Source: an uncultured delta proteobacterium
GTDB taxonomy: Bacteria > Desulfobacterota > RBG-13-43-22
Direction of reading: 5' to 3'
Length of the DNA: 64,000 bases
Assembly: GCA_963802945.1 (NCBI GenBank)
Contig: CAWDKY010000014.1
Span: forward strand, 32,001-96,000
Shown: one piece after another, positions 1-18,359 of the stretch
Numbering within the stretch: position 1 is the stretch's first letter
Layout of the letters: each line of letters starts with the position of its first letter
Notes under the pieces: model-generated
Told to the model about the DNA's origin: nothing
The model's database searches: none
The model's input: only the letters and a program-made list of their open reading frames with translations
Translations under genes and position numbers: made by a program

Positions 1-589
1 GAACATAATCACCAGGAATTGCGGATTCAAGTTAGGAGGGAATCAGATCAAGAGACTCAAAGAAAATAAGGTTTCTCCCATCTTGGCCGGGCAGGAAGAC
101 CTGGCGCTGAGTGGGAAGGTTAGCAAGGAGACGATTGACTTCCTGACTTATCAAATTAAACAAGTAGAGAACGTGGTCCAAAACAAGGTCGAATTGAAAG
201 ATCAATACCAATACCTTCAGACCATTTGCGGCGTTGGTAAAATATTATCTTTAACGATCATGCTGGAAACCGGGCCTATCGAGCGGTTCAGCAAAGTCGG
301 CCATTATACTTCCTACTGTCGTAAGGTGCCGAGTAAGTGGACCAGTAACCACAAAACCAAAGGGAAAGGTAATAAGAAAAACGGCAATAAATACCTGGCC
401 TGGGCCTTCTCAGAAGCGGCTGAGCTGGCTCGCCGCTACGATAAACCGGCTAGGGCTTACTACAACAAGAAATCGGCCAAGACCAACTTCATGGTGGCCC
501 ACACGGCCCTGGCTCATAAACTGGCCCGGGCGGCCTATTTCGTAATGAGGGATCAGGTGCCCTTTGATCCCGCAAAGGTCTTTGCCTAA
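1..589 (+). CDS. IS110-family transposase/recombinase, C-terminal part (5' end outside window)
   Basis: Frame open from position 2 to stop at 587-589. Transposase_20-like motifs: LQTICGVG..., FSKVGHYTSYC..VP...SN, KNGNKYLAWAFSEAA, ALAHKLAR. Confidence 0.92.
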   Translation, partial: NIITRNCGFKLGGNQIKRLKENKVSPILAGQEDLALSGKVSKETIDFLTYQIKQVENVVQNKVELKDQYQYLQTICGVGKILSLTIMLETGPIERFSKVGHYTSYCRKVPSKWTSNHKTKGKGNKKNGNKYLAWAFSEAAELARRYDKPARAYYNKKSAKTNFMVAHTALAHKLARAAYFVMRDQVPFDPAKVFA

Positions 590-594
590 GAGTT

Positions 595-900
595 GGCTGG
601 AGCGGTGAACCTGACTTGGGGGTTGGCGTAACCATTAGACCTGATTGGTAACCCGCTCCACCCAAGGGCCTTCAGCCTCTTTACTGCCCAGGCCGTGAAC
701 CATTTAGAGGTTGGTTAAAAACCACAAGATCTGTCATTAAACATTTGGGCACGGCCTGGAACTGAAGATTTTCTGGTCCGCCCCCAATGGCGGAAGGGGT
801 CTTGATAGAATATGGCAAGGCAGTGTGGTGGTACGCTCCTTACCTTTCAATGGCCTTGATCCTGATGGGTGACTGGTGCAGTGAAGCACTTACTGACACT
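595..900 (+). ncRNA. Candidate IS110 bridge/seek RNA
   Basis: Two stem-closed modules (TGGAGCGG 598-605/CCGCTCCA 653-660; CCAGGCCGTG 688-697/CACGGCCTGG 750-759) with shared internal motifs, directly 3' of the transposase. Confidence 0.6.
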
Positions 901-1089
901 TTAACCTTTGAAATTTCAGCAAGGGTAAAGACGTTGAAAACCTGGGGTAGTTCTAACACGTCCATTCCCTGCAAGAAAAAATGTCCATTCTTGCATACGC
1001 TGAATCTTTTTCTCTTGACAGGGCCTTTTAATGGGTGACCCCCGACCTTTACGGTTTTTGTTGATTTCAACCCAAGCGGAGGGATTTTC

Positions 1090-2082
1090 ATGAAAAACAA
1101 GAGGATACTTTTCATTATCATCGCAATATTGGTGCTTGCGGGTCTGATATTGGTGCTGAACCGAAGCAAGAAGTCTGCCGCGAAAGTCGGTATTATTGAG
1201 CCTATCGTCCATATTGCAGTCTTAGATATCACTAAGGGCATTCGTGAAGGACTCCAAGAGATCGATGCGACCAGATTTCAAATTCTGGTGAAAAACGCAA
1301 GCAGTGATGCATCCACAATTCCACAGATACTGGCACAATACAAAGATGCCGGCGTCACCATATTCGTACCGATCTTTACCCAGACGGCCCAAGCAACAAA
1401 ATCCGGCGTCGGAAATAATAAGATCGTCTTCGCTGCAGTAACAGATCCAGTCGCTGCCCAATTACTCACAAATCCTGCAATTCCGGAGGGCAACATCACG
1501 GGCGTCAGCGATCTCTGGCCCATAGGCGCACAATTTGATCTCATAAAGGAGATTTTGCCGAATGCGAAAAGAATTGGTATCCTTGTCGACCCTAATGATC
1601 CGAGTTCGGCTGTGACCCTGCCATTGATCAGGGCGCAGGCCAAACAGAAGGTGTTTGAACTCGTCGAGAAACCCGTTAATTCAGTGACAGAAGTCGCTCA
1701 GGCATTGCCGATCCTCAAAGGAAAAGTTGATTGCCTCTTCACCGCAAACGACGTCACCGTCACCAAGGCATTTCCCGCCCTTGTCGCTTACGCCATTGAA
1801 AATAAGATTCCCTTGTTTGCAGGTGATTATTCCTCAGTGCAACGGGGGGCAATCGGAGCCATCGGGCAGAACTACTACAATGTGGGGAGGGAAGCCGCCA
1901 AGCTCATTGTGGCCATTGCGGACGGAACAAAGGTATCACAACTCCCTGTGCGCTACACGGAAGGTGGAGATTTGTATCTGAATGCTGCCGCTGCTGACAA
2001 AATGGGCGTCACATTGACAGACACCCTACGTAAAAAAGCCAAGGTTACCTATACCAAAATTACGGAAGGTGAAGTGAAGTAA
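1090..2082 (+). CDS. ABC transporter substrate-binding protein (ABC_sub_bind; putative Trp/Tyr-type)
   Basis: N-terminal signal/anchor; motifs IVFAAVTDPV, NITGVSD, AKRIGIL, IPLFAGD, YYNVGREAA. Confidence 0.9.
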   Translation: MKNKRILFIIIAILVLAGLILVLNRSKKSAAKVGIIEPIVHIAVLDITKGIREGLQEIDATRFQILVKNASSDASTIPQILAQYKDAGVTIFVPIFTQTAQATKSGVGNNKIVFAAVTDPVAAQLLTNPAIPEGNITGVSDLWPIGAQFDLIKEILPNAKRIGILVDPNDPSSAVTLPLIRAQAKQKVFELVEKPVNSVTEVAQALPILKGKVDCLFTANDVTVTKAFPALVAYAIENKIPLFAGDYSSVQRGAIGAIGQNYYNVGREAAKLIVAIADGTKVSQLPVRYTEGGDLYLNAAAADKMGVTLTDTLRKKAKVTYTKITEGEVK

Positions 2083-2087
2083 TCAAG

Positions 2088-2468
2088 TTGAAGAAGAACG
2101 CGCAATTAGAACATTTGGCAGTCAAACCATCCCCTATACATGGGAAGGGACTCTTTACTAGCGAAGACATTAGCCCTGGGAAACTCGTGTATGAGTCCGA
2201 CCGCTATACAATATTACGAAGACCTTTTTATGCCAGCATCCAAAGGTCTCCGACAGAACACCTGCTGGAAGAAATGCTGAGGTGGGAAAATCATTCTTGT
2301 GTGCCTAACACCGCATTGAACTTTGACGGTCCGTTTATCCGACTCACTTCTATCTCATCAATCATTGCTGGCAGTGAACTAGTCTGCGACTACCGGGATA
2401 CTGAGGATTCGATTCCGCTCCCGTTTAAATGTAATTGTGGGCATTGTCCAGGCATTATAATAAAATAA
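2088..2468 (+). CDS. SET-domain protein (putative SAM-dependent lysine-type methyltransferase) with post-SET Cys motif
   Basis: SPIHGKGLF, RWENHSCVPN, ELVCDY, FKCNCGHC. Confidence 0.9.
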   Translation: MKKNAQLEHLAVKPSPIHGKGLFTSEDISPGKLVYESDRYTILRRPFYASIQRSPTEHLLEEMLRWENHSCVPNTALNFDGPFIRLTSISSIIAGSELVCDYRDTEDSIPLPFKCNCGHCPGIIIK

Positions 2469-2478
2469 AGGGTGGTAA

Positions 2479-3324
2479 ATGTATCAACTGACATCAATCC
2501 TTGAACTCTCATGCATATTCAGTTTGGTGTCCCTGGCTGCTATTCTAACCTTCCGTTTCGCTGGCTTTCCCGATTTGTCCGTTGATGGAGTTTTTGGGTT
2601 TGGAGCCATAATATTCGCAAAGTGTCTGTTGAGTGGACTAGGCGTCCCGCTCTCGTTTCTCGTTGCCTTGTGTGCTGGTGCACTGGTAGGGGGTCTGACC
2701 GCTCTGCTTGCGGACCGGCTTCACATCAATCCACTCCTTGCAAGCGTTCTCGTTCTCACGATTCTCTATACCCTCAATCTTCGCATCCTTGGCAAGGCAA
2801 ATCAGCCTTTGTATGGCCTGCTGACGTCCGTGTGGTCGTCCCCAACCGTGCGTCTCGGAGTATTTGCAGCATTCGCGGTGATAGTACTCGCATCATCCTA
2901 CGTTTTCTTTAGAACAGAACTGGGCGCCGGACTTCGCTGTACAGGTTCCTCGCCGGAGTTCCTCACTTCAGTCGGTCGAAGTGTTTCCGCGTTTAAGATT
3001 GCATTGGTGGCTCTTTCGGGCGCATGCGTCGCAGCGGCCGGCGCGCTCATTGCCCTGAAGTTTCACTTCGCCGACGTTTCAACAGGAACAGGGACGATTG
3101 TTATTGGCATTGCAGCACTGATCATTGGAGAGAGGACATGCAGCAGAGAGAATCTACTGTCGCAGATCCTCGCCGCGCCAAGTGGCATCTTGCTGTATCA
3201 ATTGATGGTCGGGGTTGCTTTGTCGCTGGGAACATCCCCAACTGATGTAAAACTTGGAACAGGGGTAATAGCAATCGCCCTGCTTGCGTTGAGCCGTGAT
3301 GAACGAGATAGAATACTTACTTGA
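2479..3324 (+). CDS. ABC transporter permease (putative Trp/Tyr-type)
   Basis: Multi-TM protein; FPDLSVDG, INPLLAS, LYTLNLRILG, FADVSTGTGTIVIGIAALIIGE. Confidence 0.9.
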   Translation: MYQLTSILELSCIFSLVSLAAILTFRFAGFPDLSVDGVFGFGAIIFAKCLLSGLGVPLSFLVALCAGALVGGLTALLADRLHINPLLASVLVLTILYTLNLRILGKANQPLYGLLTSVWSSPTVRLGVFAAFAVIVLASSYVFFRTELGAGLRCTGSSPEFLTSVGRSVSAFKIALVALSGACVAAAGALIALKFHFADVSTGTGTIVIGIAALIIGERTCSRENLLSQILAAPSGILLYQLMVGVALSLGTSPTDVKLGTGVIAIALLALSRDERDRILT

Positions 3325-4021
3325 GGTAGAGAAGATATCCAAGAGTTTTGATCGCCCCGAAGGCGGTAAACTCATGGTCCTAAAGGATGTTTCTCTTTCG
3401 ATTAACGGCCCCACCGTGGTCGCACTCATGGGGCCGAATGGATCCGGTAAGACAACCCTCATTAGGATCATAGCAGGAGAGATCGATCCCTCTTCCGGTA
3501 AAGTTCGCTTGTCGGGAGAAGACGTGACTGCGAGAGCGCAGTACCTGCGCACCCGCCGTATCGGATGGGTCCATCAAGAGAGTCACAAGTCGCTCGCTTC
3601 CGAGCTCACGGTCCGCGAAATTATGGCTATTGCATCAAAGCGTCAAGGTCACCTTGGCATAAAATTCCCTGCTTCCACAGAGGCGAAGGAAACCATTGCC
3701 GCGATATCGAGAGGTGCAACGGCATTCATCGAGGATGTTGAGTCTGTACAAACAAGACACCTGTCGGGCGGACAGCGCCAATTGCTCGCCTTAATCGTCG
3801 CTGTATTGGGAAATCCGTCACTCTTACTTCTCGACGAGCATAGGGCTTCTTTAGATGAGAAATTCAAGAACGTCGCGGATGAGATCGTGCTGGGATATGT
3901 TACAAAGTCAAAAGCACTTGCTGTGGCGGCCACCCATGACGAGGACTGGGTCCGGCATAGCACCTCGAAGATCGCATACCTCGCGGATGGAATACTAAAA
4001 ATCCGCGACCGGGCCAAATGA
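3296..4021 (+). CDS. ABC transporter ATP-binding protein
   Basis: Walker A GPNGSGKT, signature LSGGQ, Walker B LLLLDEH, H-loop ATHD; overlaps the permease stop. Confidence 0.92.
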   Translation: MMNEIEYLLEVEKISKSFDRPEGGKLMVLKDVSLSINGPTVVALMGPNGSGKTTLIRIIAGEIDPSSGKVRLSGEDVTARAQYLRTRRIGWVHQESHKSLASELTVREIMAIASKRQGHLGIKFPASTEAKETIAAISRGATAFIEDVESVQTRHLSGGQRQLLALIVAVLGNPSLLLLDEHRASLDEKFKNVADEIVLGYVTKSKALAVAATHDEDWVRHSTSKIAYLADGILKIRDRAK

Positions 4022-4029
4022 GGTAGACC

Positions 4030-4330
4030 ATGAGAAACTTGGATGTCCTTTTCTGCACAGCTCTCGACGAGGAGTCTTATGTACTTGAAGCTTGGATGCG
4101 TGAGGATGCAAGGGTCATAGAGGAGCCCTACGACTTTCTGGTGGTGGAAAAGAAGGTTGGTCAGGCGCAACTTTTGATTGGGCTGCAGGTTTTCGGCGAA
4201 ATGGGCAATGTAAGTTCTGCAATAAACCTAAGCCGAGCTCTCCCCGTCAACTCCAGCCGAGATGCGTTTTCTCACGGGTGTGACGGATGGCTATCATAAA
4301 ACCACGGCCGGTGTAATTGGATATCTTTAA
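4030..4330 (+). pseudogene. Truncated/frameshifted N-terminal half of a purine nucleoside phosphorylase / MTA-SAH nucleosidase domain
   Basis: DVLFCTALDEE...GEMGNVSSA parallels DILFCSARSEE...NTMGNVNAA of the next gene. A shifted frame after ~4250 reads FLTGVTDGYHK...GVIGYL*, paralleling IMIGLACGYY...GDVGY. Confidence 0.65.
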
Positions 4331-4392
4331 GATGACTGCTTGATAACTAAACATATACGAAAACCTGTGACTCCACAAAGCGAGGTGTTTCC

Positions 4393-6390
4393 ATGAGCAC
4401 TGATATTCTTTTTTGTTCAGCACGATCCGAAGAGATGTTAATCTTTGAATACTGGTGTGCAAGGAAGAAGCGGAGAAATACAATTACTCCTGCATCCTGC
4501 AGCGTTTATGAGATTGTTGTGAATGGGGAACGTCTCAGGATGGCATGCGGTAGTCTTAATACCATGGGAAATGTTAACGCAGCCATGAGGCTTAACGACA
4601 TGATCCGAGACAGTAATCCGAAAGCCGTGATAATGATAGGATTGGCGTGCGGTTATTACAGAGACAAAAATACCTTTAAGCAGGGAGACGTTGGATATGG
4701 GGGACATGTCGTGTACACTTCTTATAGCACGTTACGAGAAGCAAGAAGTGTTGAACAAAGAGCAGCAGAAGGGAAGCAGGATCCAGGTTTTTTTGAAATC
4801 GAGGGTCGATATTCAACACCTTACCAAGCCGAACCTTACTTGATTACTGCTGCTCAGCATGTATCTGGACAGGGTAGCACTATGTGGCGCAAGGAAGCAC
4901 AATCGTTTTTCAAGCGTTACGAAACAAAATGGGAAAAAGACATTTCTGTCGAGCAATATCCCCCTCAGTCAAAAATCCCTAGGGGGTTGAAAGCTCATGC
5001 GGTCACGATCGGGTCTGGTGAGTCCGTGATCAAATCGAAACGTTTTCAGGACATGGTGGTCGGGTATTACAAAGCACTTAAGCATGCCGAAATGCAACCC
5101 GTTCGCATGTTTGAGATGGAGGCGTATGGGGTCGCTGGCATATGCAAATCGCTCCAGATACCTTTTCTTGTCGTTAAAGGGATAAGCGATCACGGGGAGA
5201 GTGAAAACAAATTAGCACACGATAGCCCCCAAAAAAAGGATTCAAATCGTCTCTCGGCTATTTGTTCCGCAACCAGTTTTGCTCTCCAAGTTATCAAAGA
5301 TCAGGCATTTCTGCAATACATAAAGTCATACCCTTTGAATGAGGGATATAAAGAGAACCGGTGTTTACATCCCGGCGTACCCAGATGTGAGTACAAAGTA
5401 AGTTATACGGAAGATGGTCGTCCGGTCCAACCATGCGCCGATTGGGGATTTCGGTATCATGATATATGGGGCCGAGAAGCACCTGTGACCCGCGTTTTTG
5501 AAGGTGTCTCGCCTACAATATATTCACGCATCTTGGCTGAGTATTTTACAAGTCTATTATCTTACACAGACACAGATGAAAAAGTCACTCTCTTCTTTCA
5601 CTATTCGCCCGCCGACCTGTTACATTATTTTCGAGATTTACACGTGGAAACCTTAGGTGGAGAGGCAAATGATCTCGAAAGTGAACTCGATAAAAAGTGG
5701 CCCACTTGGCGAGAAACTAATTTTAATTGGGGTGCTCTTGGCCTGGAAGAGAAACGGCGCATCGCAAAAAAGTTAGTCGTGATCGGACGTAGAGCGAGTA
5801 TTGACTTAAGGCATTTCGGGCTTATGGACATAAAATGTAATGAACTCATCAATAAGGGGGTTGGCTTTGAGGATCTTAAAAAAAGGGTATGTCGGGTGAT
5901 CGTATGCAACTATAATGACCCAAAACAGGTAATCGAGAATCCCCTGTATATTTTATACCCGGCCTTGCTGGGCATTTGCGTTCCGTCGTTAATCATTAAA
6001 GAAGAAAGATTGAGAAATAGTTCGGTGGTCGATGACGTATGTTTCATTCAGGCGCCATTTTTATCTGTACCCGAGAACAAAGAAGAAAAGATCCAAATCT
6101 TGCGATTTGGTATACGCAGTAACACTGTGATTCTGTCTGGAAAAGAATGTGAGGAATCCAGGAAACACAACATAAACCATAAACTCATCAACGATTTTAC
6201 AGACCAGTGGGAAAACACGGAACTACGTAAACCTATCGACCGTTTCCCGTTTGTTACTCTGATAAATAAATTTGTTGCGCTCTTTGAGACGCCGACTGAC
6301 GAAGATGGCTTGTGGGCAAACAGTCTTTTGGCGTTCAAGGAAGATCATGATTTTTTTAAGAAACCTCCGGAAAATGGCTGGGACGCTTAA
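4393..6390 (+). CDS. PNP_UDP_1 (MTA/SAH nucleosidase-like) domain fused to a ~360-aa unrecognised C-terminal region
   Basis: MGNVNAA, MIGLACG, GDV, IGSGE, FEMEAYGVA, VKGISDH motifs in residues 1-300; RBS GAGGTG upstream. Confidence 0.82.
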   Translation: MSTDILFCSARSEEMLIFEYWCARKKRRNTITPASCSVYEIVVNGERLRMACGSLNTMGNVNAAMRLNDMIRDSNPKAVIMIGLACGYYRDKNTFKQGDVGYGGHVVYTSYSTLREARSVEQRAAEGKQDPGFFEIEGRYSTPYQAEPYLITAAQHVSGQGSTMWRKEAQSFFKRYETKWEKDISVEQYPPQSKIPRGLKAHAVTIGSGESVIKSKRFQDMVVGYYKALKHAEMQPVRMFEMEAYGVAGICKSLQIPFLVVKGISDHGESENKLAHDSPQKKDSNRLSAICSATSFALQVIKDQAFLQYIKSYPLNEGYKENRCLHPGVPRCEYKVSYTEDGRPVQPCADWGFRYHDIWGREAPVTRVFEGVSPTIYSRILAEYFTSLLSYTDTDEKVTLFFHYSPADLLHYFRDLHVETLGGEANDLESELDKKWPTWRETNFNWGALGLEEKRRIAKKLVVIGRRASIDLRHFGLMDIKCNELINKGVGFEDLKKRVCRVIVCNYNDPKQVIENPLYILYPALLGICVPSLIIKEERLRNSSVVDDVCFIQAPFLSVPENKEEKIQILRFGIRSNTVILSGKECEESRKHNINHKLINDFTDQWENTELRKPIDRFPFVTLINKFVALFETPTDEDGLWANSLLAFKEDHDFFKKPPENGWDA

Positions 6391-6534
6391 AGCTGTCATG
6401 TCACAATAGTTATTAATTTTGGTAGAGTAGAAAGTTATAAGAGGGGATGCTGGTACTAAAACGACTTATTTTTCCCTTTAGGCCGATTGTTTTTGATTTA
6501 ACAAGTTCCAACCACCAATTTATATCTTTGGTCT

Positions 6535-7221
6535 TTACTTCGTCGAAAGGGTTTTTCGTTTGTTGCTACGAAACCGTTTAATGCATGTGAGAATGTTATC
6601 AGTCCAATCTGCATCGGCATGTTTTGACACCGGCTGAAACTTCATGATCAGGTTTGTATTTTCACCACTTGGCAACAGCCATTTGGACGGAATGTACATG
6701 AAATCGCTCCATTGTCCTGTTGAGGGATGCATGGACACAGCCAGAATGTCAAATTCATCAAATCTATACGGTCTTGTAGCAACGCCGTTTTTAGTCCCGC
6801 CCCTGGTCTTTTGTGTCTCAACAACCCATTTTTCAGCCGAAAAAATTCTGTAGCCTTCATTTGCGGTCATGGGGCGTTGGTTTTTTTGTCGTTGCATCTT
6901 GACCTGAATTCGGATTGTGCCAATACTGTCTTGGATATTGAAATCATAGGGTTGATCGCCTTCCGTACTTATATCATGCCATCCTTTCAGGTTTTCAATT
7001 ACATCTTTTTTGAAGGCGGCCTCGGCAATAATACCACGTATACCTCTTAAAGTGAGGTCACTTGCTCTTGAAATGGCTTCAAGGATGATCTCGGCCTTGC
7101 ATCCAAGTTTTGTTTCAAGGGGGTGGATGTTAACCCTGGCTCTGATATACTGCAGTAATTCACTACATTGGTCATCACTGCAATCATCTATCAGTTGCTT
7201 GATTTCCTTTAAATTTACCAT
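6535..7221 (-). CDS. Putative type II restriction endonuclease (PD-(D/E)XK-like)
   Basis: E...PYDF...IQVK nuclease-like pattern; divergent from a DNA methyltransferase. Confidence 0.62.
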   Translation of the reverse strand: MVNLKEIKQLIDDCSDDQCSELLQYIRARVNIHPLETKLGCKAEIILEAISRASDLTLRGIRGIIAEAAFKKDVIENLKGWHDISTEGDQPYDFNIQDSIGTIRIQVKMQRQKNQRPMTANEGYRIFSAEKWVVETQKTRGGTKNGVATRPYRFDEFDILAVSMHPSTGQWSDFMYIPSKWLLPSGENTNLIMKFQPVSKHADADWTDNILTCIKRFRSNKRKTLSTK

Positions 7222-7435
7222 GTTTTCTTCTTGGGCGCCCCGCAGGCCCGTCCTTCAATTCAAGAACTTCCTGCTTGTTGACGAGCGAATAGCCCCCTAT
7301 TTCGAGAGTTTTTAATTTACCTTTTTTTACCAGCTTGGAAATCGCCTGACGTGTGACGCCCCTCAGTCTTGCCGCCTCCGCCTGAGATACCCACTGGGAG
7401 AGGGCAATATTTTTTTGATATAAATTGGTTGACAA
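7184..7435 (-). CDS. Small HTH DNA-binding protein (controller-like regulator of the R-M module)
   Basis: SQAEAARLRGVTRQAISKLVKKGKL helix-turn-helix; overlaps the start of the endonuclease gene. Confidence 0.75.
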   Translation of the reverse strand: MSTNLYQKNIALSQWVSQAEAARLRGVTRQAISKLVKKGKLKTLEIGGYSLVNKQEVLELKDGPAGRPRRKHGKFKGNQATDR

Positions 7436-7457
7436 TGTTAACCCAATATGATATTTT
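7427..7457. promoter_or_regulatory. Palindromic operator overlapping a candidate sigma70 promoter between the R-M genes
   Basis: GGTTGACA-A-TGTTAACC near-perfect inverted repeat (7427-7443) containing TTGACA (7429-7434); TATTTT 17 bp downstream. Confidence 0.5.
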
Positions 7458-7499
7458 TATTTTGTCGGTTTTGTGTTATTATATAGATAAGAGGTAAGT

Positions 7500-8474
7500 A
7501 TGCAAACTTCCATTTTCAATCAGTTGGCAAGGAAGCAAAATTTCCGCGAACTTCTTGTTGATATCAAGCCATATTATGCAACCGATTTCGGGGCCGCCTA
7601 TTGGGGCAATTCCTTAGAGATAATGGGGCGGATTCCGGACGGCTCTGTTAATGCGGTGATTACTTCCCCTCCTTATGCCCTTCAATTTAAAAAAGAATAT
7701 GGAAACGTATCAAAAACTGATTATGTATCATGGTTTATCCCTTTTGCAAAGGAGATTTTAAGGATACTCCGGGAAGATGGAAGCTTTATATTGAACATAG
7801 GAGGAAGCTATAACAGGGGGGCGCCTACTCGTTCAATATACCATTTCAAGCTTCTGATTGCCCTTGTTGAAGAGGTTGGGTTCCATTTGGCGCAGGAATG
7901 TTTCTGGTATAACCCTGCTAAAATGCCCATGCCGGCTGAATGGGTAACGGTACGCCGGATTCGCATTAAGGATTCAGTAGAGTATGTATGGTGGTTTTCT
8001 AAAACCCCTTGGCCAAAGGCAAACAACCGGAACGTGCTAAAACCTTACAGCAAGGACATGATGCGGTTAAATCAGCGGGGTGTCCGCGCAACCGTCCGTC
8101 CATCCGGTCACAACATTAGATCGACTTTTGATAAAGTTGACGCCGGTGGCTCTATTCCCGCTAATTTTTTTGAAGATGAAACCGCCCCGGATCTGCTCAG
8201 ATTCGGTAATAATGCAGCAAATGACCCATATACAATCAAATGCAAAGAGGCCGGGATAAAAATACACCCGGCCAGATTTCCTGCTGTTTTACCTGAATTT
8301 TTTATCAAATTGCTTTCCGATGAATATGATGTGGTGCTTGATCCTTTTGCCGGGTCAAACACCACCGGGGCCACTGCTGAAAGTTTGAATAGACGATGGA
8401 TTGCGATAGAAAGTATAGAAGAATATTTAAGGGCAAGCAAGTTCAGGTTTGAAGATATAAGAGGTGTGAAATAA
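7500..8474 (+). CDS. Beta-class amino-DNA methyltransferase (probably N4-cytosine)
   Basis: Catalytic TSPPY precedes HPARFP and the SAM-binding VLDPFAGS motif. Confidence 0.92.
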
Positions 8475-8876
8475 ATCCATCCCGATTGCACTATGGAATC
8501 CCCGTGGACATGACCATCGTACAACACGGAACGCTGGGACTAAGACAACTTATTTTTTCCATGGACAATGGACAGGAACTATAAAGGACGTCCCTCTCTG
8601 CCTTTATCCTCACCGGGCAATCGCAGCCCTCGAAATCCCGAACTCCTGACTTCCATAACAGGTAATCTTTGCCCCCACCCTCGAATATTTTCCAGTCAAT
8701 TCCTTCAGCCTCAATTCCTGCTCCAATCCGTTTCTTCCTCAATTTGATCAACTTATTACTTGTTATTTTGGCCGGAAAAAGGATAATGGGTTCCCGGTTT
8801 CTGTCGCCTGGTATCTGGACCTTTTTGAGCAACCTGTAAAAATAAGTTTTTCCGCATCCTGTTAATTCGGATGAGT

Positions 8877-8955
8877 GCAGTCAGCCGTCAGCCTTCGGCT
8901 ATCAGTAAATGCTTTTAATGACAGTGGGTTGGCTAAATGCTGATTGCTGGAAGCT
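8877..8955. repeat. Heptamer-periodic inverted-repeat element
   Basis: TCAGCCG TCAGCCT TCGGCTA TCAG ... GCTAAAT GCTGATT GCTGGAA GCT. Confidence 0.7.
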
Positions 8956-8976
8956 CTATACCAATTAGATAGTTGA

Positions 8977-10137
8977 ATGAATCGAATGGAAAAAACCGCG
9001 GACATCGTCATCATCGGCGGCGGGATCATCGGGACGAGCATCGCCTTTCATCTGGCCCGGAAAAAGACCAAAGGGGTCGTGCTCCTGGAAAAGGGTATGC
9101 TGGGTGAAGGGTCCACGGCCAAATGCGCCGGGGGTATACGGTCCCAATTCTCTACGGAGATCAACATCCGCTTCTCTCTGGAGAGTTTGAACTTCTGGAA
9201 CCATTTTCAAGAAATCATGGGGACTGAGCTTTATTTTAAAAAAGTCGGCTACCTTTTCTTGGCTGCCAGCGAAGACGAGTGGGCCATATTTAAAAACAAT
9301 TCGGACCTCCAGCACCAATTCGGAATCCCCGTGGAACTTCTATCCCCCCAAGAAATTCAATACCGCTGGCCCTATCTGCGGGTGGATGATCTTAAGGGGG
9401 GAACTTTTTGTACCTGGGACGGATACGCCGGGCCTTACGAAGCCCTGAGCGGCTTCACCCGGGGGGCGAGGGCCGGCGGGGTAAAAATCTTTGAGCAGAC
9501 CGAAGTCCTCCAGATTCTGCGAAACAAGAACCAGGTGACCGGCGTTCGGACTTCTCGGGGTGATATTGCTTCGCCCATCGTAGTCAATGCGGCCGGCCCC
9601 TTCGCCGGTGAGGTGGGCAAACGGGCCGGGGCCGACGTGCCGGTTCAACCTTTTCGCCGGCAGCTATTCTTCACCGGGCCATTCCCCCACATTCCCGATC
9701 CCATTCCTCTGGTCATCGACTTTCACCAGGGCTGGTATTTCCGAAGAGAGGGAGCGGGTTTGTTGATTTCCGGGCCCAAGGACGCATTCCCTTCCTTTAA
9801 TCTGAACGTGGATTATGAGGCCATGGTGGAGGTGGCCGGAAACTCCATGCACCGGGTGCCTATCATGGAGAAGGCGGCCATTGACCGCGGCTGGGCCGGG
9901 TCTTACGAGATCTCTCCCGATAACCAGGCCATATTGGGAGAATTTCCCGGATTGAGAGGCTTCTTCCTGGCCAATGGCTTCAGCGGCCACGGCTTCCAGC
10001 ACAGCCCGGCAGTGGGAAAATGCATGGCCGAGCTGATCCTTGGGGAAAAACCTTTCCTCGACATCTCCTGTCTCTCCCTTGAGCGCTTCGCCAAAGGAGA
10101 ATTGATCCGAGAGCCCCTCACCGCCTTCAAAGACTAA
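8977..10137 (+). CDS. FAD-dependent oxidoreductase (D-amino acid oxidase / sarcosine oxidase beta family)
   Basis: IIGGGIIG, GSTAKCAGG, VVNAAG, GFSGHGFQHSPAVG. Confidence 0.9.
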   Translation: MNRMEKTADIVIIGGGIIGTSIAFHLARKKTKGVVLLEKGMLGEGSTAKCAGGIRSQFSTEINIRFSLESLNFWNHFQEIMGTELYFKKVGYLFLAASEDEWAIFKNNSDLQHQFGIPVELLSPQEIQYRWPYLRVDDLKGGTFCTWDGYAGPYEALSGFTRGARAGGVKIFEQTEVLQILRNKNQVTGVRTSRGDIASPIVVNAAGPFAGEVGKRAGADVPVQPFRRQLFFTGPFPHIPDPIPLVIDFHQGWYFRREGAGLLISGPKDAFPSFNLNVDYEAMVEVAGNSMHRVPIMEKAAIDRGWAGSYEISPDNQAILGEFPGLRGFFLANGFSGHGFQHSPAVGKCMAELILGEKPFLDISCLSLERFAKGELIREPLTAFKD

Positions 10138-10550
10138 GCGGGTCCTGGATTAAACCGTATGGAGGGTGGCGGGGAATTTAGGGTCCTATTGACTTCATGT
10201 TCCCTTTTGAGCTTTGAGCTAAATTTTTGCCCCGCAAGGCAAAAATTAGTTGACTTTCCCCCTTTTTCCTTTTATTTTCTTACTATTATCTTTGGGCTTT
10301 CAGTCTTGAGGTTAAAGTTTTTTTTCGCCGAACGACCCTGTCCCTCGCAGGCGCCGCACGACGAACGTTTTTTAAACCCTCTCATCCTTAAGTTGTGAAG
10401 TTCATATTTCTTGGCCTGTTGAATGAGGTTCTTCGGCCAAGGGCCGGTTGAATGGATAGCTGAACAGATAATCCTTATTTATAAATATAAAAAAATAGCC
10501 CGATGTAATGATGTTACGAACTTCTTCAAAAGAAAGGAGGTTATTCCATT

Positions 10551-11204
10551 ATGTTCTGCTCAAATTGCGGCACAAGGATTGAAGAGGAGGTGAAATTTTG
10601 CCCTAATTGTGGCAATGGAATCGGCAGCAGCGGACTTCAAACAACTAAATCCTCTTATGGTGTGGTTGACGCTGATAGCCCGTTTAGAATTCAAGGGGAA
10701 AAAAGGGAAAAATTCTCTTCAAGCCCGGCTGCCATCAGCGATATGGATAAATTGAATCTTTTTCTTTTGGTAGGGGGTCTCTGTTATTTTATCGGGTTTT
10801 TTCTGTCCTGGGTAGAGGTTATGTCGGCTCCCCTTTCAGGTTTGGATATAATCAAAACATCTTCTGGACTATATCAGGTTTTGTCTTTGGTTCTTTTATT
10901 TTTCCCTATTGGCGGAGGATTTATTATCTATTATTTTTTTACAAAGAATCCCCGCCTAAGAAGACTATCGTATCTTAGCTGGATCATTCCTATATTATGT
11001 ATCATTATAATTATAATATTAATTATAATAGCCACGGCCTTTCCGGAGGATTTCGATATAAAATCAGCATTTGAAATGATGATGGGGCAAAAGTTTAGCG
11101 ATTTTTTCAGTATCTTTGAGTTTATTGGCCTTGGTATATACGTGATCATTGCAGGAATGATTTGCCTCATGATAGGAACTGGTAAAAAGAGGCCTTCTTT
11201 CTGA
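10551..11204 (+). CDS. Zinc-ribbon domain membrane protein
   Basis: N-terminal CSNCG...FCPNCG and four hydrophobic segments; RBS GGAGG. Confidence 0.8.
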   Translation: MFCSNCGTRIEEEVKFCPNCGNGIGSSGLQTTKSSYGVVDADSPFRIQGEKREKFSSSPAAISDMDKLNLFLLVGGLCYFIGFFLSWVEVMSAPLSGLDIIKTSSGLYQVLSLVLLFFPIGGGFIIYYFFTKNPRLRRLSYLSWIIPILCIIIIIILIIIATAFPEDFDIKSAFEMMMGQKFSDFFSIFEFIGLGIYVIIAGMICLMIGTGKKRPSF

Positions 11205-11722
11205 AACGGGTCATGGTTTGAAGTCAAATACTTTTAAGCAGAATGACCGGCCTAGGCAAAAATCACTAACGATAGCTAATAAAGGATGATTTCCCAATAG
11301 GGTCTGACAAAACATTACCTTGGAATAATGAATCCGTTGTGAAAAGGGGTCTAGTCTGCTCTTGACTATTTGTGGAAAATTGGACCCCATTTTCTTTTTC
11401 CCATAATTGATAAACGCTCAACCCCGACTTTTTTCTTTTAAGCCTATTTTTAACCTGGGACTTTGTCCTTTTTCCTTTATCTCTCCTGCCTCAGTTCTCC
11501 CATGGTTCGGCCTTTCCGCCCTTTGGTTTGGTCGCTGAACGACGAAGGATGAACACCAAACGTCTTTTACTTTTCCCTTGACTTACCCCCTTCCCCCCTT
11601 TATTTATTTATAATATCTTTAGCTTTTTTTATTTTCGTCGAAGGCCGAACGTTTTTTACAGCCTTTCCCACTTATTTGTGAGGTTAATATTTCTTTTTTA
11701 TTTTCTAACAGGAGGACAGGCT

Positions 11723-12241
11723 ATGAAAGAAACACCCGATTATGAAAAGTATCCGGTCAGTGAAGAGGAAATGGGTAAACGGTATAAGAACTGGACAGAG
11801 ACTTTGGCCCGGCAGATGGTTGTCTTATTTCGAGTCGGAAAAGAGGTCGGCGGGGAGAAATTTATTGAGCGTCTGAAAGAAGAGTATTACAAAGACGGCC
11901 AGAAAGGCGCCAAGATGTGGATGCGCATGACGGGAACCACCCCGGAAGATTTTCACGACTGTATGGCCCTGCCCAAGGTGCACGACTTGATCGACGATAC
12001 TTATGCCAATTATTGGGACGGGTATGTCCAGCATACGCCAAAAGCCTTTGAGAAAGAACTCAAAACCTGCCCGGTGGCGAAGACTTGGTCCAGGGAACCG
12101 GATATATGCGGCATCCTGTTGGGGTCATCGATGAAGGGCATGGCAGAGTCGCTGAATCCGAAGTTCAAGGCCAGCGGCTTTACGAAATTGCTGCCCAAAG
12201 GGGACAATTGCTGCCGGTTCTGCATTTCATTGGAAGATTAG
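11723..12241 (+). CDS. L-2-amino-thiazoline-4-carboxylate hydrolase-like / V4R-like protein
   Basis: CPVAKTW...C...LNP...L.KGDNCCRF pattern; RBS GGAGG before ATG 11723. Confidence 0.65.
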   Translation: MKETPDYEKYPVSEEEMGKRYKNWTETLARQMVVLFRVGKEVGGEKFIERLKEEYYKDGQKGAKMWMRMTGTTPEDFHDCMALPKVHDLIDDTYANYWDGYVQHTPKAFEKELKTCPVAKTWSREPDICGILLGSSMKGMAESLNPKFKASGFTKLLPKGDNCCRFCISLED

Positions 12242-12293
12242 TGAAGTGGCAGGAAGCCACGTTTTACATCATGAAACTTAGGAGGGAATAGAA

Positions 12294-13274
12294 ATGGCAA
12301 AGATCAATACCGTCCTTGGCCCGATTGATCCAGAGTCCCTGGGTCTCACCTTAGCCCACGAGCATATTATTGCCGGATATCCCGGATGGGAGTGCGATCC
12401 GTTGTCCAGGCCCTATAATCGGGAAAAAATTGTTAACGTTTGTCTGAGAAATCTCGAATCGGTGAAGGCCTATGGTGTCAATGCCATTGTTGATGCCACG
12501 CCTCTCGATCTGTCCAGGGATGTCGATGTGATGAGGGATGTTTCAGAAAGACTCCAGGTTCATATCGTCTGTTCCACAGGCCGGTATACGGAAAATGAGG
12601 GCAAATGGATCTATCTTCGGCAGAGAGAGAGAAGCAAAATCGGCGAGATGAAGACCGAGCTCTATGAAGGCTTTATGCAGGAACTGACTTGCGGCATTGG
12701 TCAAAGCGGTATCAGGCCGGGTGTCATTAAGGTAGCGTCGGGATTGAATTGTATCTCGCTGTGCGAGGAAGCAACGCTGAGGGCGGCGGCTCAAGCCAGC
12801 AAAGAAACTGGTGCGCCCATTATGACCCACACCGAAGGTGGAACGATGGGACCGGAGCAGGCCGATCTGCTTATTGGTGAAGGCGTGAGTCCGCAAAAGA
12901 TCATGATTGGCCATATGTGCGGCAATCCTTCCTTGGCCTATCAGATGGAGGTGTTGGGCAGAGGGGTCTACATGGCCTTCGATCGGTTCGGTATCGAGAT
13001 GTTTGTTCCGGATCAGGTACGCATCGCCGTACTGATCGGTCTGTTGGGGATGGGCTATGCCGACCGCATCATGATGTCCCAAGATTTCACGGCTTGCGGC
13101 TATGGCCGGGGCGGCAGGCTGCCTGCAGAAGAGGCCAAAAAAGTTGGCGTTAACTGGTCCTTTACGAATATCTTTCGCAACATCATACCGGCCCTCAAGA
13201 AGGCTGGCATAAGCAGTGACCAGATCAAAACCATGACGATTGACAATCCAAGGCGCTTTTTGAGCGGCCTTTAG
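12294..13274 (+). CDS. Phosphotriesterase-family amidohydrolase
   Basis: INTVLGPI, LGLTLAHEH, IVDATP, GVIKVA, THT, GH, FDRFG, SQD, DNPRR. Confidence 0.9.
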   Translation: MAKINTVLGPIDPESLGLTLAHEHIIAGYPGWECDPLSRPYNREKIVNVCLRNLESVKAYGVNAIVDATPLDLSRDVDVMRDVSERLQVHIVCSTGRYTENEGKWIYLRQRERSKIGEMKTELYEGFMQELTCGIGQSGIRPGVIKVASGLNCISLCEEATLRAAAQASKETGAPIMTHTEGGTMGPEQADLLIGEGVSPQKIMIGHMCGNPSLAYQMEVLGRGVYMAFDRFGIEMFVPDQVRIAVLIGLLGMGYADRIMMSQDFTACGYGRGGRLPAEEAKKVGVNWSFTNIFRNIIPALKKAGISSDQIKTMTIDNPRRFLSGL

Positions 13275-14084: not shown

Positions 14085-16098
14085 ATGAAAATTTTCAGTG
14101 GATTGACGAATAAATTATTTAAATTAAATTTGCAAAACCGTATCGTCGTGGGATCCATGATCGCCACGCTGCTGACCGGTTTCGTGGCCACCTTCATAGG
14201 GATATGGACGATCAACAAAAGTACCATAGACGAGGTAAAAAACAGGGTCCGGCAGGACATCAATACGGCAAAATTGATCTATAACCAGACTCTGGATAAG
14301 ATCGCCACCCGTATTCTCTTCACAGCCGAAAGTTCGGATCTTCAGGCGATCATGGTCAACCACGAATACTCCAAGATGGCATTTTTGCGAGGCTTAATCC
14401 GGAATGAACAGAAGACTCCGATTCAAGGCGATGAAATATTCCTGGATATGGTCACGGTGATCGATGGGCGCGGGAACGTCCTCTATCGGGCGGCAAACCC
14501 GGGAGATCAGGGGAGACAATATGCTCTGGCTGCCGGTGGCAAAAAAATGTCTGGAAAACAAATCACCGCAATTATCCACCGAACTCCTGCCTATTAACAA
14601 GATCCTCAGGGAGAATCCGAGTCTCATTGATCGAGCCACCATGGAAATCATCAAAATACCACTCTCTTATGACACCCAAGAGAAACAATTGTCCGACGGT
14701 ATGGTGATGATGGCGGCCTATCCCCTCTTTGATAAGGATAATAAATTGATGGGGGCCATCATGGGGGGGGTTCTCCTGAATAAAGACAATACTATCGTGG
14801 ACAAAGTCAAAGAAACCGTATATCAGGGGGAAAAATACAAAGGCCGAGATATGGGTGTGGCCACGATATTTCAGGGTGGTGTTAGAATATCGACCAACGT
14901 CATGACCAAAGAAAACAAGAGGGCTATCGGCACGACCTTGTCCAAGGAGGTCTATGACCGGGTCATCGTACAGGGCCGAGATTGGGTGGGCAGGGCCTTT
15001 GTGGTCGATGACTGGTATATCACCACTTACACTCCGATTTACAATATGAATAAGAATCTCATTGGGGTCCTCTATGTCGGTCTGTTGGAGTCCAAATACA
15101 GGGATATCCGCTGGAATATGATATGGATCAACACCAGTATCACCGGTCTGGCCGTGGTGATTGCCTTTATCATTTCTGTTTTCCTGACTAATACGATCGT
15201 CAAAAGGATACGTATATTGAAGGAAGCCGCGGAAGCTATCGCTGCCGGTAATTTAGACTATCAACTGCCTCCCGATAAAATCTCCGGATTCGACATGCTG
15301 GATGAGGCCTTCAATTTTATGTCCAAGTCCTTGAAAGACCAGAATGAAAAGCTGCACAAGGCCTACCTTCAACTGGCCGGAACAGAAAAATTGACCGCCC
15401 TGGGTGAAATGGCCTCGGGGGTCGCCCATGAAGTCAACAACCCCCTCGGGGGGATCCTCCTTTACAGCAATCTCGTTCTCGAAGATATTCCGGAGGATTC
15501 CCCGGCCCGGGAAAACATGCAGAAAATCATCTACCAGACCAACCGTTGCAAAGAAATCGTTCAGAGCCTCCTTGACTTTGCCAGGACACCTACCGGCGAT
15601 ATGGTGCCTCTCAAGATCAATAATGTCGTCAATACTTCTCTTAATCTTATCAAGCAGCAGGCCATGTTCCACGGCATTGAAATTAAGACCAGTCTGTCAG
15701 AGAATCTTCCGGAAATCATCGGGGACAGGGCCAGGTTGGAGGAGGTTTTTCTAAATCTTTTCATCAATGCCGCCGATGCCATGAACGGCAAAGGGTTGCT
15801 GACCATAAAGACAAAACTTACCTCCAATAATTCAATAAAAGTTTTGGTAACGGATACCGGTGAAGGGATAGACAAGGAACACCTTCAGCATATATTCGAA
15901 CCTTTCTTTACGACCAAAGAACCCGGTAAGGGAACAGGCCTGGGACTTTCCATCGTCTACGGCATCATCAAAAAGCATAACGGTCTCATCGAAGCGGAGA
16001 GCGAACCCGGAAAGGGCACGACCTTTATCATTTCCCTTCCCTCCTATATCAGCAAACTCACCGGGCTGGATGGGGATTTTTTTAGTCGATTTTTTTAA
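14085..16098 (+). CDS. Cache/HAMP sensor histidine kinase (frameshift near 14510, probably artefactual)
   Basis: TM + Cache (ATIFQGGVRISTNV, RAIGT) + HAMP + HisKA (AHEVNNP) + HATPase (FEPFFTTK, GTGLGL); frames join at a G run. Confidence 0.85.
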
Positions 16099-16101
16099 TC
16101 T

Positions 16102-17462
16102 ATGAAAAAAGAAGAAAAGCAAATCCCGAAAAAGAAAATCCTCATCATCGATGATGAAGAATCCATACGCGACGGATGCACGCAGGTCTTGTCCCGGAAA
16201 GGCTTCCAGGTTGAAAGTACCGGCGATGCCCTTTTGGGGCAGGAGATGGCCCTCAAGAATATTTATGATGTCATCCTGCTGGACATCCGGATGCCCAAAA
16301 TGGATGGTTTGGAAATTCTCAAGAAGCTCAAAGTCGAAAAAAACATCTCGGCCAAAGTCATCATCATTACCGGTTATGGCAGCATACCGATGGCGGTCGA
16401 GGCGATGAGACAAGGCGCCTTCAATTTTCTCAGCAAGCCTTACTCGGCAGCGGCATCTGAGAGGGGCGGTTGAAGAGGCTTTGAGGCAGTTTGATGGGGG
16501 CGGAGTAGAAAAAGGACTTTCCGTATTAATCGGCAGCAGCGACTACATGAAAGAGCTCAAAGAATCCATTGGTAGAATTGCCCATACCGACAGCACCGTT
16601 CTCATTACCGGAGAGAGCGGGACAGGCAAGGAACTGGTCGCTCGCACCATCCACAACCTCAGCAAAAGGGGTGATCAGCCGTTTATTCCCGTTGACTGTT
16701 CTTCGCTGGTGGAGACCCTCATGGAAAGCGAACTTTTCGGACATGTCAAGGGGGCCTACAGCGGGGCCACCGAATCACGGGAGGGCCGCTTTCAGATGGC
16801 TGACAAGGGCACCTTGTTTTTAGATGAGATTTCCAACATCAACCTCAACATACAGGCCAAACTGCTTAGGGTGATCCAGGAGCAGGAAGTGCCCAAAGTT
16901 GGCCGATCGTCGCCCGAGAAGATCGATGTCAGGCTGATCACCGCCACCAATAAAGACATCAGATCGAAATTGATTCCGGCAGGTTCAGGGAGGATCTATT
17001 TTACAGGATTTCCGTTGTGCCGCTCCATATAAAGCCATTGTGTGAACATAAAGCCGATATTCTGCCTATTGCCCAGCATTACCTGGAGATATTCATTGCC
17101 AAGTACGAAAGCAGGTAAGAGGCTTCTCAGAAGAAGCCAAAAAATCCCTGGTCGCTTATCGCTGGCCGGGCAATGTCCGGGAGTTGAAGAATACCATAGA
17201 ACGCCTCTGTGTACTCTGCGACCATGAGGTCGTCGACCTTTCCGATATATTCTATTACGGTCAAAACGATCATAGCAAGGCCTCTGTTTTGGATTCTATG
17301 ACCGGCAGGATGACCCTGATCGATGTGGAAAAAGAACATATCGTCAAAGCCCTGCGCCACTTTCACTACCAGATCAACAAGACGGCTCAATTCCTGGGCA
17401 TTGACAGGAAGACCCTTCGGATAAAGATGCGTAATTACGGCATCAATATTGAGGAACCGTAA
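16102..17462 (+). CDS. NtrC-family sigma54-dependent response regulator (several frameshifts)
   Basis: Receiver (IIDDE, LLDIRMP), AAA+ (GESGTGKE, ESELFGH, LFLDEI, WPGNVREL) and Fis-HTH (TAQFLGIDRKTL) spread over consecutive ORFs. Confidence 0.85.
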
Positions 17463-17956: not shown

Positions 17957-18352
17957 ATGACCATGGCAGCAAAGAAAAAAATTCTCTTAATCGACGATGA
18001 CAAAGATTTTCTCTTTGCCACCAAGCTTATCCTTGAAAAAGGTGGGTATGAGGTGTTTATGGCCGAAGACGGGAAAACCGGCGTGGAGATGTGGAAATCC
18101 GTATCTCCGGACTTGGCCATCATTGATATGATGATGGAGACCTGGGGTGAAGGATTCTCGGTACTGAATAAAATTCGGGCCACCGATACGGGAAAGAATA
18201 CACCGCTATTTATGTTGAGTGCCGTTGACCTCCAGGGCCCCTATCAGTCATTTGAAGCGCCCGAGAATTTTCCCAAGGTAAACAAGGTGCTGCATAAACC
18301 CGTGAAGGCGGAAGACCTTCTCCGGTTCATTGCCCATGAACTGGGTGCCTAG
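17957..18352 (+). CDS. Single-domain response regulator
   Basis: LLIDDD, PDLAIIDMMM, KP. Confidence 0.88.
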   Translation: MTMAAKKKILLIDDDKDFLFATKLILEKGGYEVFMAEDGKTGVEMWKSVSPDLAIIDMMMETWGEGFSVLNKIRATDTGKNTPLFMLSAVDLQGPYQSFEAPENFPKVNKVLHKPVKAEDLLRFIAHELGA

Positions 18353-18359
18353 TGATGCG

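Follow-up and report, generated by a model that had tools for sequence, protein, structure and literature searches.

What would a small SET-domain methyltransferase be doing inside the operon of an ATP-binding cassette (ABC) importer that ends in nucleosidase-like genes? Bacterial SET enzymes are mostly orphan curiosities or secreted effectors. The arrangement in question lies in a 64,000-nucleotide (nt) stretch of DNA (hereafter the window) from an uncultured delta proteobacterium (GTDB lineage Bacteria; Desulfobacterota; RBG-13-43-22), taken from GenBank assembly GCA_963802945.1, contig CAWDKY010000014.1, positions 32,001 to 96,000 of the forward strand. A first-pass annotation made from the sequence alone had described six co-oriented genes at 1090-6390, and the listing of open reading frames (ORFs) returned all six with exactly those coordinates and spacings. 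Here PNP stands for the purine nucleoside phosphorylase fold and MTAN for methylthioadenosine/S-adenosylhomocysteine nucleosidase.

1090..2082, + strand, substrate-binding protein (SBP) gene (Pfam PF04392, 215.6 bits)
2088..2468, + strand, SET gene with a TTG start, 126 residues (PF00856, 33.1 bits against a cut-off of 22.4)
2479..3324, + strand, permease gene, 281 residues (PF02653, BPD_transp_2, 85.6 bits)
3296..4021, + strand, ABC ATPase gene (PF00005, 103.9 bits)
4030..4299, + strand, ORF5, 89 residues, probable stump of a displaced PNP-family gene
4393..6390, + strand, ORF6 (PF01048, 38.1 bits against a cut-off of 25.1, residues 34-282)
4393..5289, + strand, N-terminal PNP/MTAN-fold nucleosidase domain of ORF6 (PF01048 and MtnN alignment)
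5290..6390, + strand, C-terminal domain of ORF6, about 350 residues (conservation in the family alignment)

The genes are closely packed. The SBP and SET genes are separated by 5 nt and the SET and permease genes by 10 nt, the permease and ATPase genes overlap by 29 nt, and ORF5 begins 8 nt after the ATPase gene; ORF5 and ORF6 are 93 nt apart. A scan of species-representative genomes for the SET family gave 21 pattern matches, of which one was confirmed. It marks a locus (L001, hereafter the second locus) on a 272-kb contig of a Verrucomicrobia metagenome-assembled genome (MAG), where the gene order is identical to that in the window:

4901-5908, SBP
5908-6294, SET protein (Pfam SET, 45.7 bits)
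6302-7147, permease, 281 residues, the same length as in the window
7122-7862, ATPase
7859-9577, PNP fusion protein, 572 residues

In both loci the SET gene is wedged between the SBP and permease genes. The junctions of the second locus are stop/start overlaps, with a permease/ATPase overlap of 26 nt (29 nt in the window) and a 4-nt ATGA overlap between the ATPase and PNP genes. Because the second locus repeats the five-gene order with similar junctions, we conclude that the layout is not a chance juxtaposition. The cassette is a real but rare five-gene operon, conserved and translationally coupled in two unrelated genomes, and it is horizontally mobile. It brings known kinds of protein together in a new combination and adds an uncharacterised domain family. 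The evidence on synteny and context comes from these two loci (n = 2).

Pairwise identity between the two loci is 63% for the SBP, 53% for the SET protein, 58% for the permease and 50% for the ATPase, and only 27% for ORF6 and its counterpart. The nucleosidase gene diverges at roughly double the rate of the other genes of the cassette. The nearest plasmid-borne relatives of the SBP (35 records) are at most 37% identical to it, and in both of the contexts opened (2/35) a contiguous SBP-permease-ATPase set was found without a SET or PNP gene. In the one context opened for the distant stand-alone SET genes found on plasmids, the gene does not lie in an operon of this kind. The plasmid and phage collections yielded no copy of the cassette, only PNP-domain matches and those distant SET genes.

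These results bear directly on the first-pass annotation. Its statement that the SET gene is embedded within the transporter holds in the window, at the Pfam score given above, and again in the second locus; its statement that this ABC family normally runs SBP, permease, ATPase agrees with the ordinary plasmid relatives in the two contexts opened. It had proposed that its idea would fall if such transporters never co-occurred with SET or PNP genes elsewhere, and the second locus has both. It also knew of no described system with this layout, and we found none in the full-text literature or with PADLOC. The literature searches covered SET proteins with ABC transporters or in anti-phage defence, and PNP or other nucleosidases with an SBP in defence, and none of the papers found describes such a layout.

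What the importer carries can be approached through the SBP, which aligns end to end with 3lkv, 6hni and 3lft, its best solved relatives. According to PMC6816091, these proteins bind Phe, Tyr and Trp through a common mode for the amino and acid groups. Based on the NCBIfam TrpX model NF041285, the SBP scores 218.7 bits, under the equivalog cut-off of 390, which places it in the same superfamily but not among the equivalogs. The ligand contacts of Streptococcus suis TrpX are named as T108, A127, T129, D152 and N233 in PMC9382623. In the HMMER alignment, on which this comparison is based, the SBP keeps the 'T', 'AVTDP' (A-V-T) and 'SD' ligand motifs, that is, four of the five named positions, while the conserved Asn of 'DN(T/L)' aligns to Val ('ANDVTV') in the SBPs of both loci. 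The SBP has Tyr at the position where Phe/Tyr binders have Tyr and the Trp binder has Gln. Hydropathy points to an N-terminal hydrophobic anchor or signal at residues 1-28, with no lipobox Cys, and the permease is hydrophobic throughout, as a multi-pass membrane protein, with a weak NCBIfam match to LsrC (35 bits). The ATPase translation contains the Walker A motif (GPNGSGKT), the signature (LSGGQ), Walker B with the catalytic Glu (LLLLDE) and the H-loop; its PADLOC matches (mad3 and others) reflect general P-loop or ABC similarity. We infer that the importer probably works and takes up an aromatic amino-acid-like ligand, and that its recognition of the alpha groups may differ.

Compared with importers of the TrpXYZ/CD0873 type, the cassette has the same three protein families, most of the ligand-contact motifs and intact ATPase motifs, but a SET gene separates its SBP and permease genes, a PNP-fusion gene is appended, and its SBP is sub-equivalog with the Asn of the binding site replaced by Val in both copies. 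The trpX gene of S. suis has a T-box leader, as stated in PMC9382623, whereas the window operon is without one: an Rfam search at E<=1 over positions 1-9000 gave a sub-threshold snoRNA match only, and no riboswitch or T-box upstream of the operon. The regions upstream of the operon in the two loci have nothing in common and share no conserved leader. Promoter and terminator scans of the window cassette gave nothing above shuffled sequences, and its intergenic folds are no better than those of shuffles.

The SET protein belongs to a compact family. We found 12 homologues in an index of 5.8 billion proteins, all of 126-130 residues and 49-65% identical, one of them annotated as coming from a Hydrogenedentes MAG. 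Longer, fused forms were sought and none was found, which is weak evidence. Invariant in all 13 sequences are G19/G21, N68-H69-S70-C71, E97/D101/Y102 and C115/C117/C120, which we take to be the GxG motif, the NHSC motif, the motif with the ELxxDY Tyr and the post-SET Cys cluster, respectively. The spacing of the post-SET Cys residues is CxCxxC, and two further segments, 'SIQR(S/T)P' and 'TEDSIPxPF', are strongly conserved. With the family profile the best match is the SET domain of MLL1 (2.8e-13, MLL-type), in an alignment that spans the NHSC...DY...CxC region; BurB (9l4t) is matched at 1.3e-8. Based on hydropathy there is no signal sequence or transmembrane segment, which indicates a cytoplasmic protein. 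By its motifs it appears to be a minimal, catalytically intact methyltransferase. Like BurB and the minimal SET proteins of bacteria and viruses, it is a small stand-alone SET enzyme. It differs from BurB in lying nearer to the MLL-type histone SET domains and in having the post-SET CxCxxC, and BurB itself lies outside any transporter operon. BurB, a SET enzyme, S-methylates methionine in its free form (PMC12542666). With its gene hard-wired into a transporter operon in at least two lineages, the cassette SET protein offers a tractable handle on the role of minimal bacterial SET proteins, whether they act on small molecules or on proteins.

The 3' gene is the least familiar part of the cassette. 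A HMMER search with ORF6 and its counterpart in the second locus gave 1909 matches at E<=1e-3 and 45 at E<=1e-30, from which about 45 full-length two-domain relatives of 570-770 residues were recognised. In the alignment of this PNP-fusion family (44 sequences, 21-33% identical to ORF6), PF01048 was found in 42 of the 44 members and other Pfam families in none. E14, M242-E243 and D266 of ORF6 are invariant (44/44) and correspond to E12, M173-E174 and D197 of Escherichia coli MtnN, so the PNP half appears from the alignment to have an intact MTAN-type catalytic triad. In the C-terminal half, C324, C332, C348, C586, S378, H474 and R501 are invariant, and the four Cys residues are a probable metal site. 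The family of the 3' gene thus comprises about 45 sequence clusters, which combine a PNP nucleosidase with a metal-binding-looking domain.

The C-terminal domain, of about 350 residues, was seen only in fusion with the PNP clade of ORF6; apparent matches to this domain on its own proved to be N-terminally truncated fragments. It had no Pfam match even at E<=10, LuxS included, and none among PDB sequences, PHROGs or the protein Atlas. Comparisons with hhalign indicated that it is unrelated to PNP or SET domains, the single match being due to leftover PNP residues in fragment rows. With ORF6 as a whole, a word-index search returned ORF6 alone and the Atlas search gave no usable lead.

Is the nucleosidase of the MTAN type or of the type found in immune systems? 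The best solved relatives of ORF6 are MTANs (1.3e-22). ORF6 is nevertheless far under the MTAN equivalog cut-offs (PRK05584, 44.2 against 169; TIGR01704, 33.9 against 73.8). With the family hidden Markov model (HMM), Cap17-like proteins score 132-137 bits and E. coli MtnN about 80, and DeoD was not matched. Among the next-best library matches, 40 of about 100 listed were scanned; all 40 fit PADLOC immune PNP models, and some are fused to SAVED, LeoA-like or HEAT-ARM modules. On plasmids the best matches were a 'phosphorylase' encoded next to a CBASS CD-NTase (cyclase), a SAVED protein and response-regulator (REC) fusions. Four residues are common in the PNP-fusion family, K113, W165, K281 and R286 (19-24 of 25 members sampled; Lys at position 113 in 21/25). 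The same positions are kept in 61-73 of 88 immune PNPs, position 286 being Arg in 39/88 or His in 27/88, and in MtnN they are V102, a gap, S203 and L211. V102 presumably lines the alkylthio pocket of MtnN. W165 is carried by an insert of about 60 residues relative to MtnN. PNP domains of the Cap17 clade are stated to predict immune function, and to stand N- or C-terminal to sensor domains, by Rousset et al. (bioRxiv 10.1101/2023.01.24.525353).

Set beside the immune ATP nucleosidases Cap17 and Detocs DtcC, ORF6 is alike in its predicted PNP fold, its apparently intact active site (with the equivalent of Cap17 D472) and its partner domain, which looks non-catalytic. These proteins are also its nearest non-family relatives by profile score, share K113, W165, K281 and R286 with the family, and the locus adjoins defence genes. 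It is unlike them in that the partner domain is Cys-rich and novel rather than SAVED, TPALS, REC or NLR, in the S110 signature of its family, and in an operon partnership with an importer and a SET enzyme that is unprecedented. With MtnN/Pfs it shares the exactly aligned catalytic Glu, Glu and Asp, and a logical tie to a SET enzyme that uses S-adenosylmethionine (SAM). It departs from MtnN/Pfs in the insert with W165, in the change of V102, S203 and L211 to Lys, Lys and Arg in the family, in its fusion to a 350-residue domain, and in being fast-evolving and sub-equivalog. The first-pass annotation had described the 3' proteins as carrying S-adenosylhomocysteine/methylthioadenosine nucleosidase domains; at 44.2 bits against 169, ORF6 is not a Pfs equivalog, and half of it is the uncharacterised Cys-rich domain.

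The rapid divergence of this gene has a counterpart in ORF5. This short ORF begins 8 nt past the stop of the ATPase gene, where the second locus carries its full PNP gene. It matches the N-terminus of ORF6 (22/65 identical, 34%, E 3e-8) and, better, the PNP-family member P0039 (36% over 72 residues, E 3e-14). The homology is restricted to its first ~72 residues, and ORF5 had no Pfam, NCBIfam or PADLOC match. The G+C content at third codon positions (GC3) is 0.50-0.56 in the SBP, permease and ATPase genes and 0.53 in ORF5, 0.435 in ORF6 and about 0.43 in the adjoining restriction-modification (R-M) genes; the housekeeping genes of the window are at 0.51-0.71. ORF6 has its own 93-nt upstream region and a GAGG resembling a ribosome-binding site (RBS), and in the family tree it and the PNP protein of the second locus fall in different starred subclades. 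Because the stump sits at the PNP position of the second locus and has transporter-like GC3, we infer that a resident PNP gene was displaced, probably being truncated to ORF5 on the arrival of a different, complete allele with its own 5' region, ORF6. That ORF5 and ORF6 are one frameshifted gene was rejected, since the homology stops at about residue 72 and a complete ORF6, with its own N-terminal catalytic residues, starts only 93 nt on. Of the PNP-domain proteins that the first-pass annotation had seen here, ORF6 therefore stands (PF01048), and ORF5 is a truncated stump rather than a second enzyme.

The flanks of the window cassette are an IS110-family fragment and an R-M unit, as had been noted from the sequence:

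2-589, left flank, IS110-family transposase fragment (PF02371)
6535-7221, - strand, 228-residue gene that overlaps the helix-turn-helix (HTH) gene and converges on ORF6 (weak PHROG match)
7184-7435, - strand, right flank, HTH gene, part of the R-M unit
7500-8474, + strand, right flank, type II N6/N4 methyltransferase (MTase_II, 363 bits)

The 228-residue gene had no Pfam, NCBIfam or PADLOC match; its position suggests that it encodes the restriction endonuclease of the unit. The R-M module lies between the copies of a 41-nt imperfect direct repeat (6436-6476 and 8520-8560, 78% identical), the 25-nt core of which is found nowhere else in the window. This arrangement suggests that the unit entered separately, as a mobile piece of its own, immediately behind ORF6. 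In the second locus the following defence genes were found:

978-4723, type II methyltransferase and an 825-residue HATPase_c_3 protein that resembles BbrUII/HgiDII restriction endonucleases, directly upstream of the cassette
14751-16121, AbiLi-like AAA_21 ATPase (260 bits), 5 kb downstream of the cassette

R-M systems of two different types thus adjoin the cassette in the two loci (2/2).

What, then, might the cassette do? We tentatively favour a role as an import-coupled conflict module of the defence type, while allowing that this may well be wrong. The importer would take in an aromatic amino-acid-like compound through a pocket altered at one conserved Asn, and the SET protein would use SAM to methylate that compound, for which BurB is a precedent, or alternatively a protein partner. 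The C-terminal, Cys-rich domain would read the imported or methylated compound, or a related signal, and gate the N-terminal nucleosidase of ORF6, which may cleave adenine nucleotides or nucleosides, as Cap17-type effectors cleave ATP. The outcome would be growth arrest or metabolite depletion in a conflict such as phage attack. We lean towards this reading because the synteny and the coupled junctions are conserved in the window and the second locus, because the PNP gene turns over in the manner of an effector (different subclades, the ORF5 stump and the break in GC3), because the setting is a defence island in 2/2 loci, and because the PNP domain is kin to immune PNPs and the catalytic residues of both the SET and PNP domains are invariant. 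A number of observations weigh against it. We know of no defence system with an SBP-dependent importer or a SET domain, the evidence from context is limited to two loci, and no phage or plasmid copy of the cassette was found in the collections searched. PADLOC (PADLOC-DB 2.0) was run, as the first-pass annotation had advised: it recognised no system at the window cassette, gave no match for the SBP, the SET protein, the permease or ORF5, and has no model for the C-terminal domain. ORF6 does match its CBASS-PNP model PDLC00759 (56.8 bits; 23 family members, 30.7-70.4), but this was rejected as a defence signal and is uninformative because housekeeping E. coli MtnN, the control, scores as well (54.6). 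ORF6 itself has Thr at position 113, not Lys, and the family signature S110 (25/25, against Glu in 65/88 immune PNPs) speaks against an immune affinity or is neutral. Nor does phylogeny put the family inside the immune clade. The family is monophyletic, in a clade of its own (99 SH-aLRT), but the backbone of a 115-row tree is unresolved, and in a 52-row tree the immune set is joined by only 39% support, beside a split of MtnN and DeoD at 88% that is flagged as a long-branch join. A clade of the family with MtnN is not rejected by the approximately unbiased (AU) test (p 0.488). Profile scores, nearest matches and shared residues thus favour an immune-type PNP, and the tree and AU test do not decide. 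Finally, the cassette of the second locus continues after 5 nt into a gene for a Ser/Thr-dehydratase-like enzyme of the pyridoxal-phosphate-dependent (PLP) type, and on the opposite strand there are divergent genes resembling Trp-2,3-dioxygenase (TDO) and a cyclase/arylformamidase (9583-12502 region), which have a metabolic look. These PLP-, TDO- and cyclase-like genes are absent from the window; in the second locus they may either extend the cassette metabolically or be unrelated neighbours. We consider it doubtful that the cassette is the founding case of a new import-coupled immune class, in which the importer and SET protein would make or relay a cue to a four-Cys sensor that frees a Cap17-related nucleosidase; the cue might be a methylated aromatic amino-acid derivative, or SAM/SAH status when a phage attacks SAM (SAH, S-adenosylhomocysteine). 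If this were true, it would be the first defence-type system on a nutrient-importer chassis with a SET enzyme. If the C-terminal domain gates nucleotide cleavage, the theme of ATP-nucleosidase effectors would gain a new sensor and a solute-import input unseen in immunity.

A close, near-equal rival to the conflict module, possible though on its own unlikely, is a metabolic module, in which a substrate resembling an aromatic amino acid is imported and methylated by the SET enzyme with SAM, and the MTAN-like domain of ORF6 clears SAH, which is inhibitory (or methylthioadenosine or 5'-deoxyadenosine); the Cys-rich domain would serve that route as an additional enzyme or as its regulator. This reading has a strong prior, since operons that combine an importer with enzymes are mostly metabolic, and the tight translational coupling is typical of pathway operons. 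The importer looks intact, with 4/5 TrpX ligand positions kept and solved relatives that bind Phe, Tyr and Trp in the account cited above, and BurB provides a case of a SET enzyme acting on a free amino acid (PMC12542666; profile match 1.3e-8). ORF6 keeps the MTAN triad and has MTANs as its best solved relatives, and the AU test does not reject a clade of its family with MtnN, yet it is far below the equivalog cut-offs, the residue aligned with V102, of presumed pocket role, is Lys in 21/25 family members sampled, and K281 and R286 are common to the family and the ATP-cleaving immune PNPs. It is also unusual for a housekeeping-type clearing enzyme to outpace its operon partners and to be replaced by a non-orthologous allele, and the metabolic reading explains this turnover and the non-MTAN features less well. 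The run-on, 5 nt after the cassette, into the dehydratase-like gene of the second locus, with TDO- and cyclase-like genes beside it, fits a pathway, but the window is without these genes, both loci have R-M genes beside them, and there is no riboswitch, T-box or conserved leader upstream. If the module is metabolic, it would join BurB as a second case of a SET enzyme at work on free metabolites, here with dedicated clearance of the by-product. Both alternatives offered by the first-pass annotation, import and methylation with SAH removal on the one hand and defence or signalling on the other, survive, the former through the importer and BurB and the latter through the R-M genes, the fast turnover of the PNP gene and its kinship; the PNP match from the PADLOC run is not diagnostic between them. 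It is improbable that the cassette consists of two abutting independent units, an importer with its SET enzyme serving one function and a stand-alone defence or salvage gene, the PNP-Cys4 fusion, that is prone to land in the same variable island. ORF6 was evidently acquired separately and has its own 93-nt upstream region, RBS-like GAGG and distinct GC3, and the PNP-Cys4 family (~45, E<1e-30) looks larger than the SET family (12 clusters), so that many of its members may live elsewhere. A PNP-family gene has however come to follow the ATPase gene three independent times (the second locus, the ORF5 stump and ORF6), no terminator-like structure was found between ORF5 and ORF6 by terminator scan or intergenic folding, and the replacement put the same type of gene back at the same place. 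Far less probable still is a signal loop in which the SET enzyme makes SAH, the MTAN-like domain and the metal-binding C-terminal domain turn it into a diffusible ribose-derived signal, and the ABC system re-imports that signal. The likeness is by analogy only: SAH is processed first by Pfs and then by LuxS, a metalloenzyme of the Cys/His kind, the C-terminal domain has invariant Cys and His residues, and the permease belongs to a class that also serves the Lsr and ribose systems (the weak LsrC match of 35 bits). The C-terminal domain matches neither LuxS nor any other Pfam family even at E<=10, and the SBP is TrpX-like rather than LsrB-like.

The rest of the window is chromosomal in character, with rpoB/C, ribosomal proteins, EF-Tu, EF-G, SecY and seven tRNAs. 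The rpoC gene (beta') is present as two overlapping ORFs, 42476-45859 with Rpb1 domains 1-5 and 45618-46574 with the rest of domain 5, as a result of a frameshift, a split of the gene or an error in assembly. EF-Tu is encoded twice, at 33039-34238 and 49797-50996, with the same Pfam scores; one copy comes after a tRNA cluster and the other after EF-G in the str operon. A sigma-54 activator ORF at 16481-17032 comprises the AAA+ core only (183 residues), and the REC-HisKA and HATPase_c parts of a histidine kinase are in separate ORFs, at 18330-18974 and 19013-19486; the activator and split kinase ORFs may be pseudogenes or frameshift errors.

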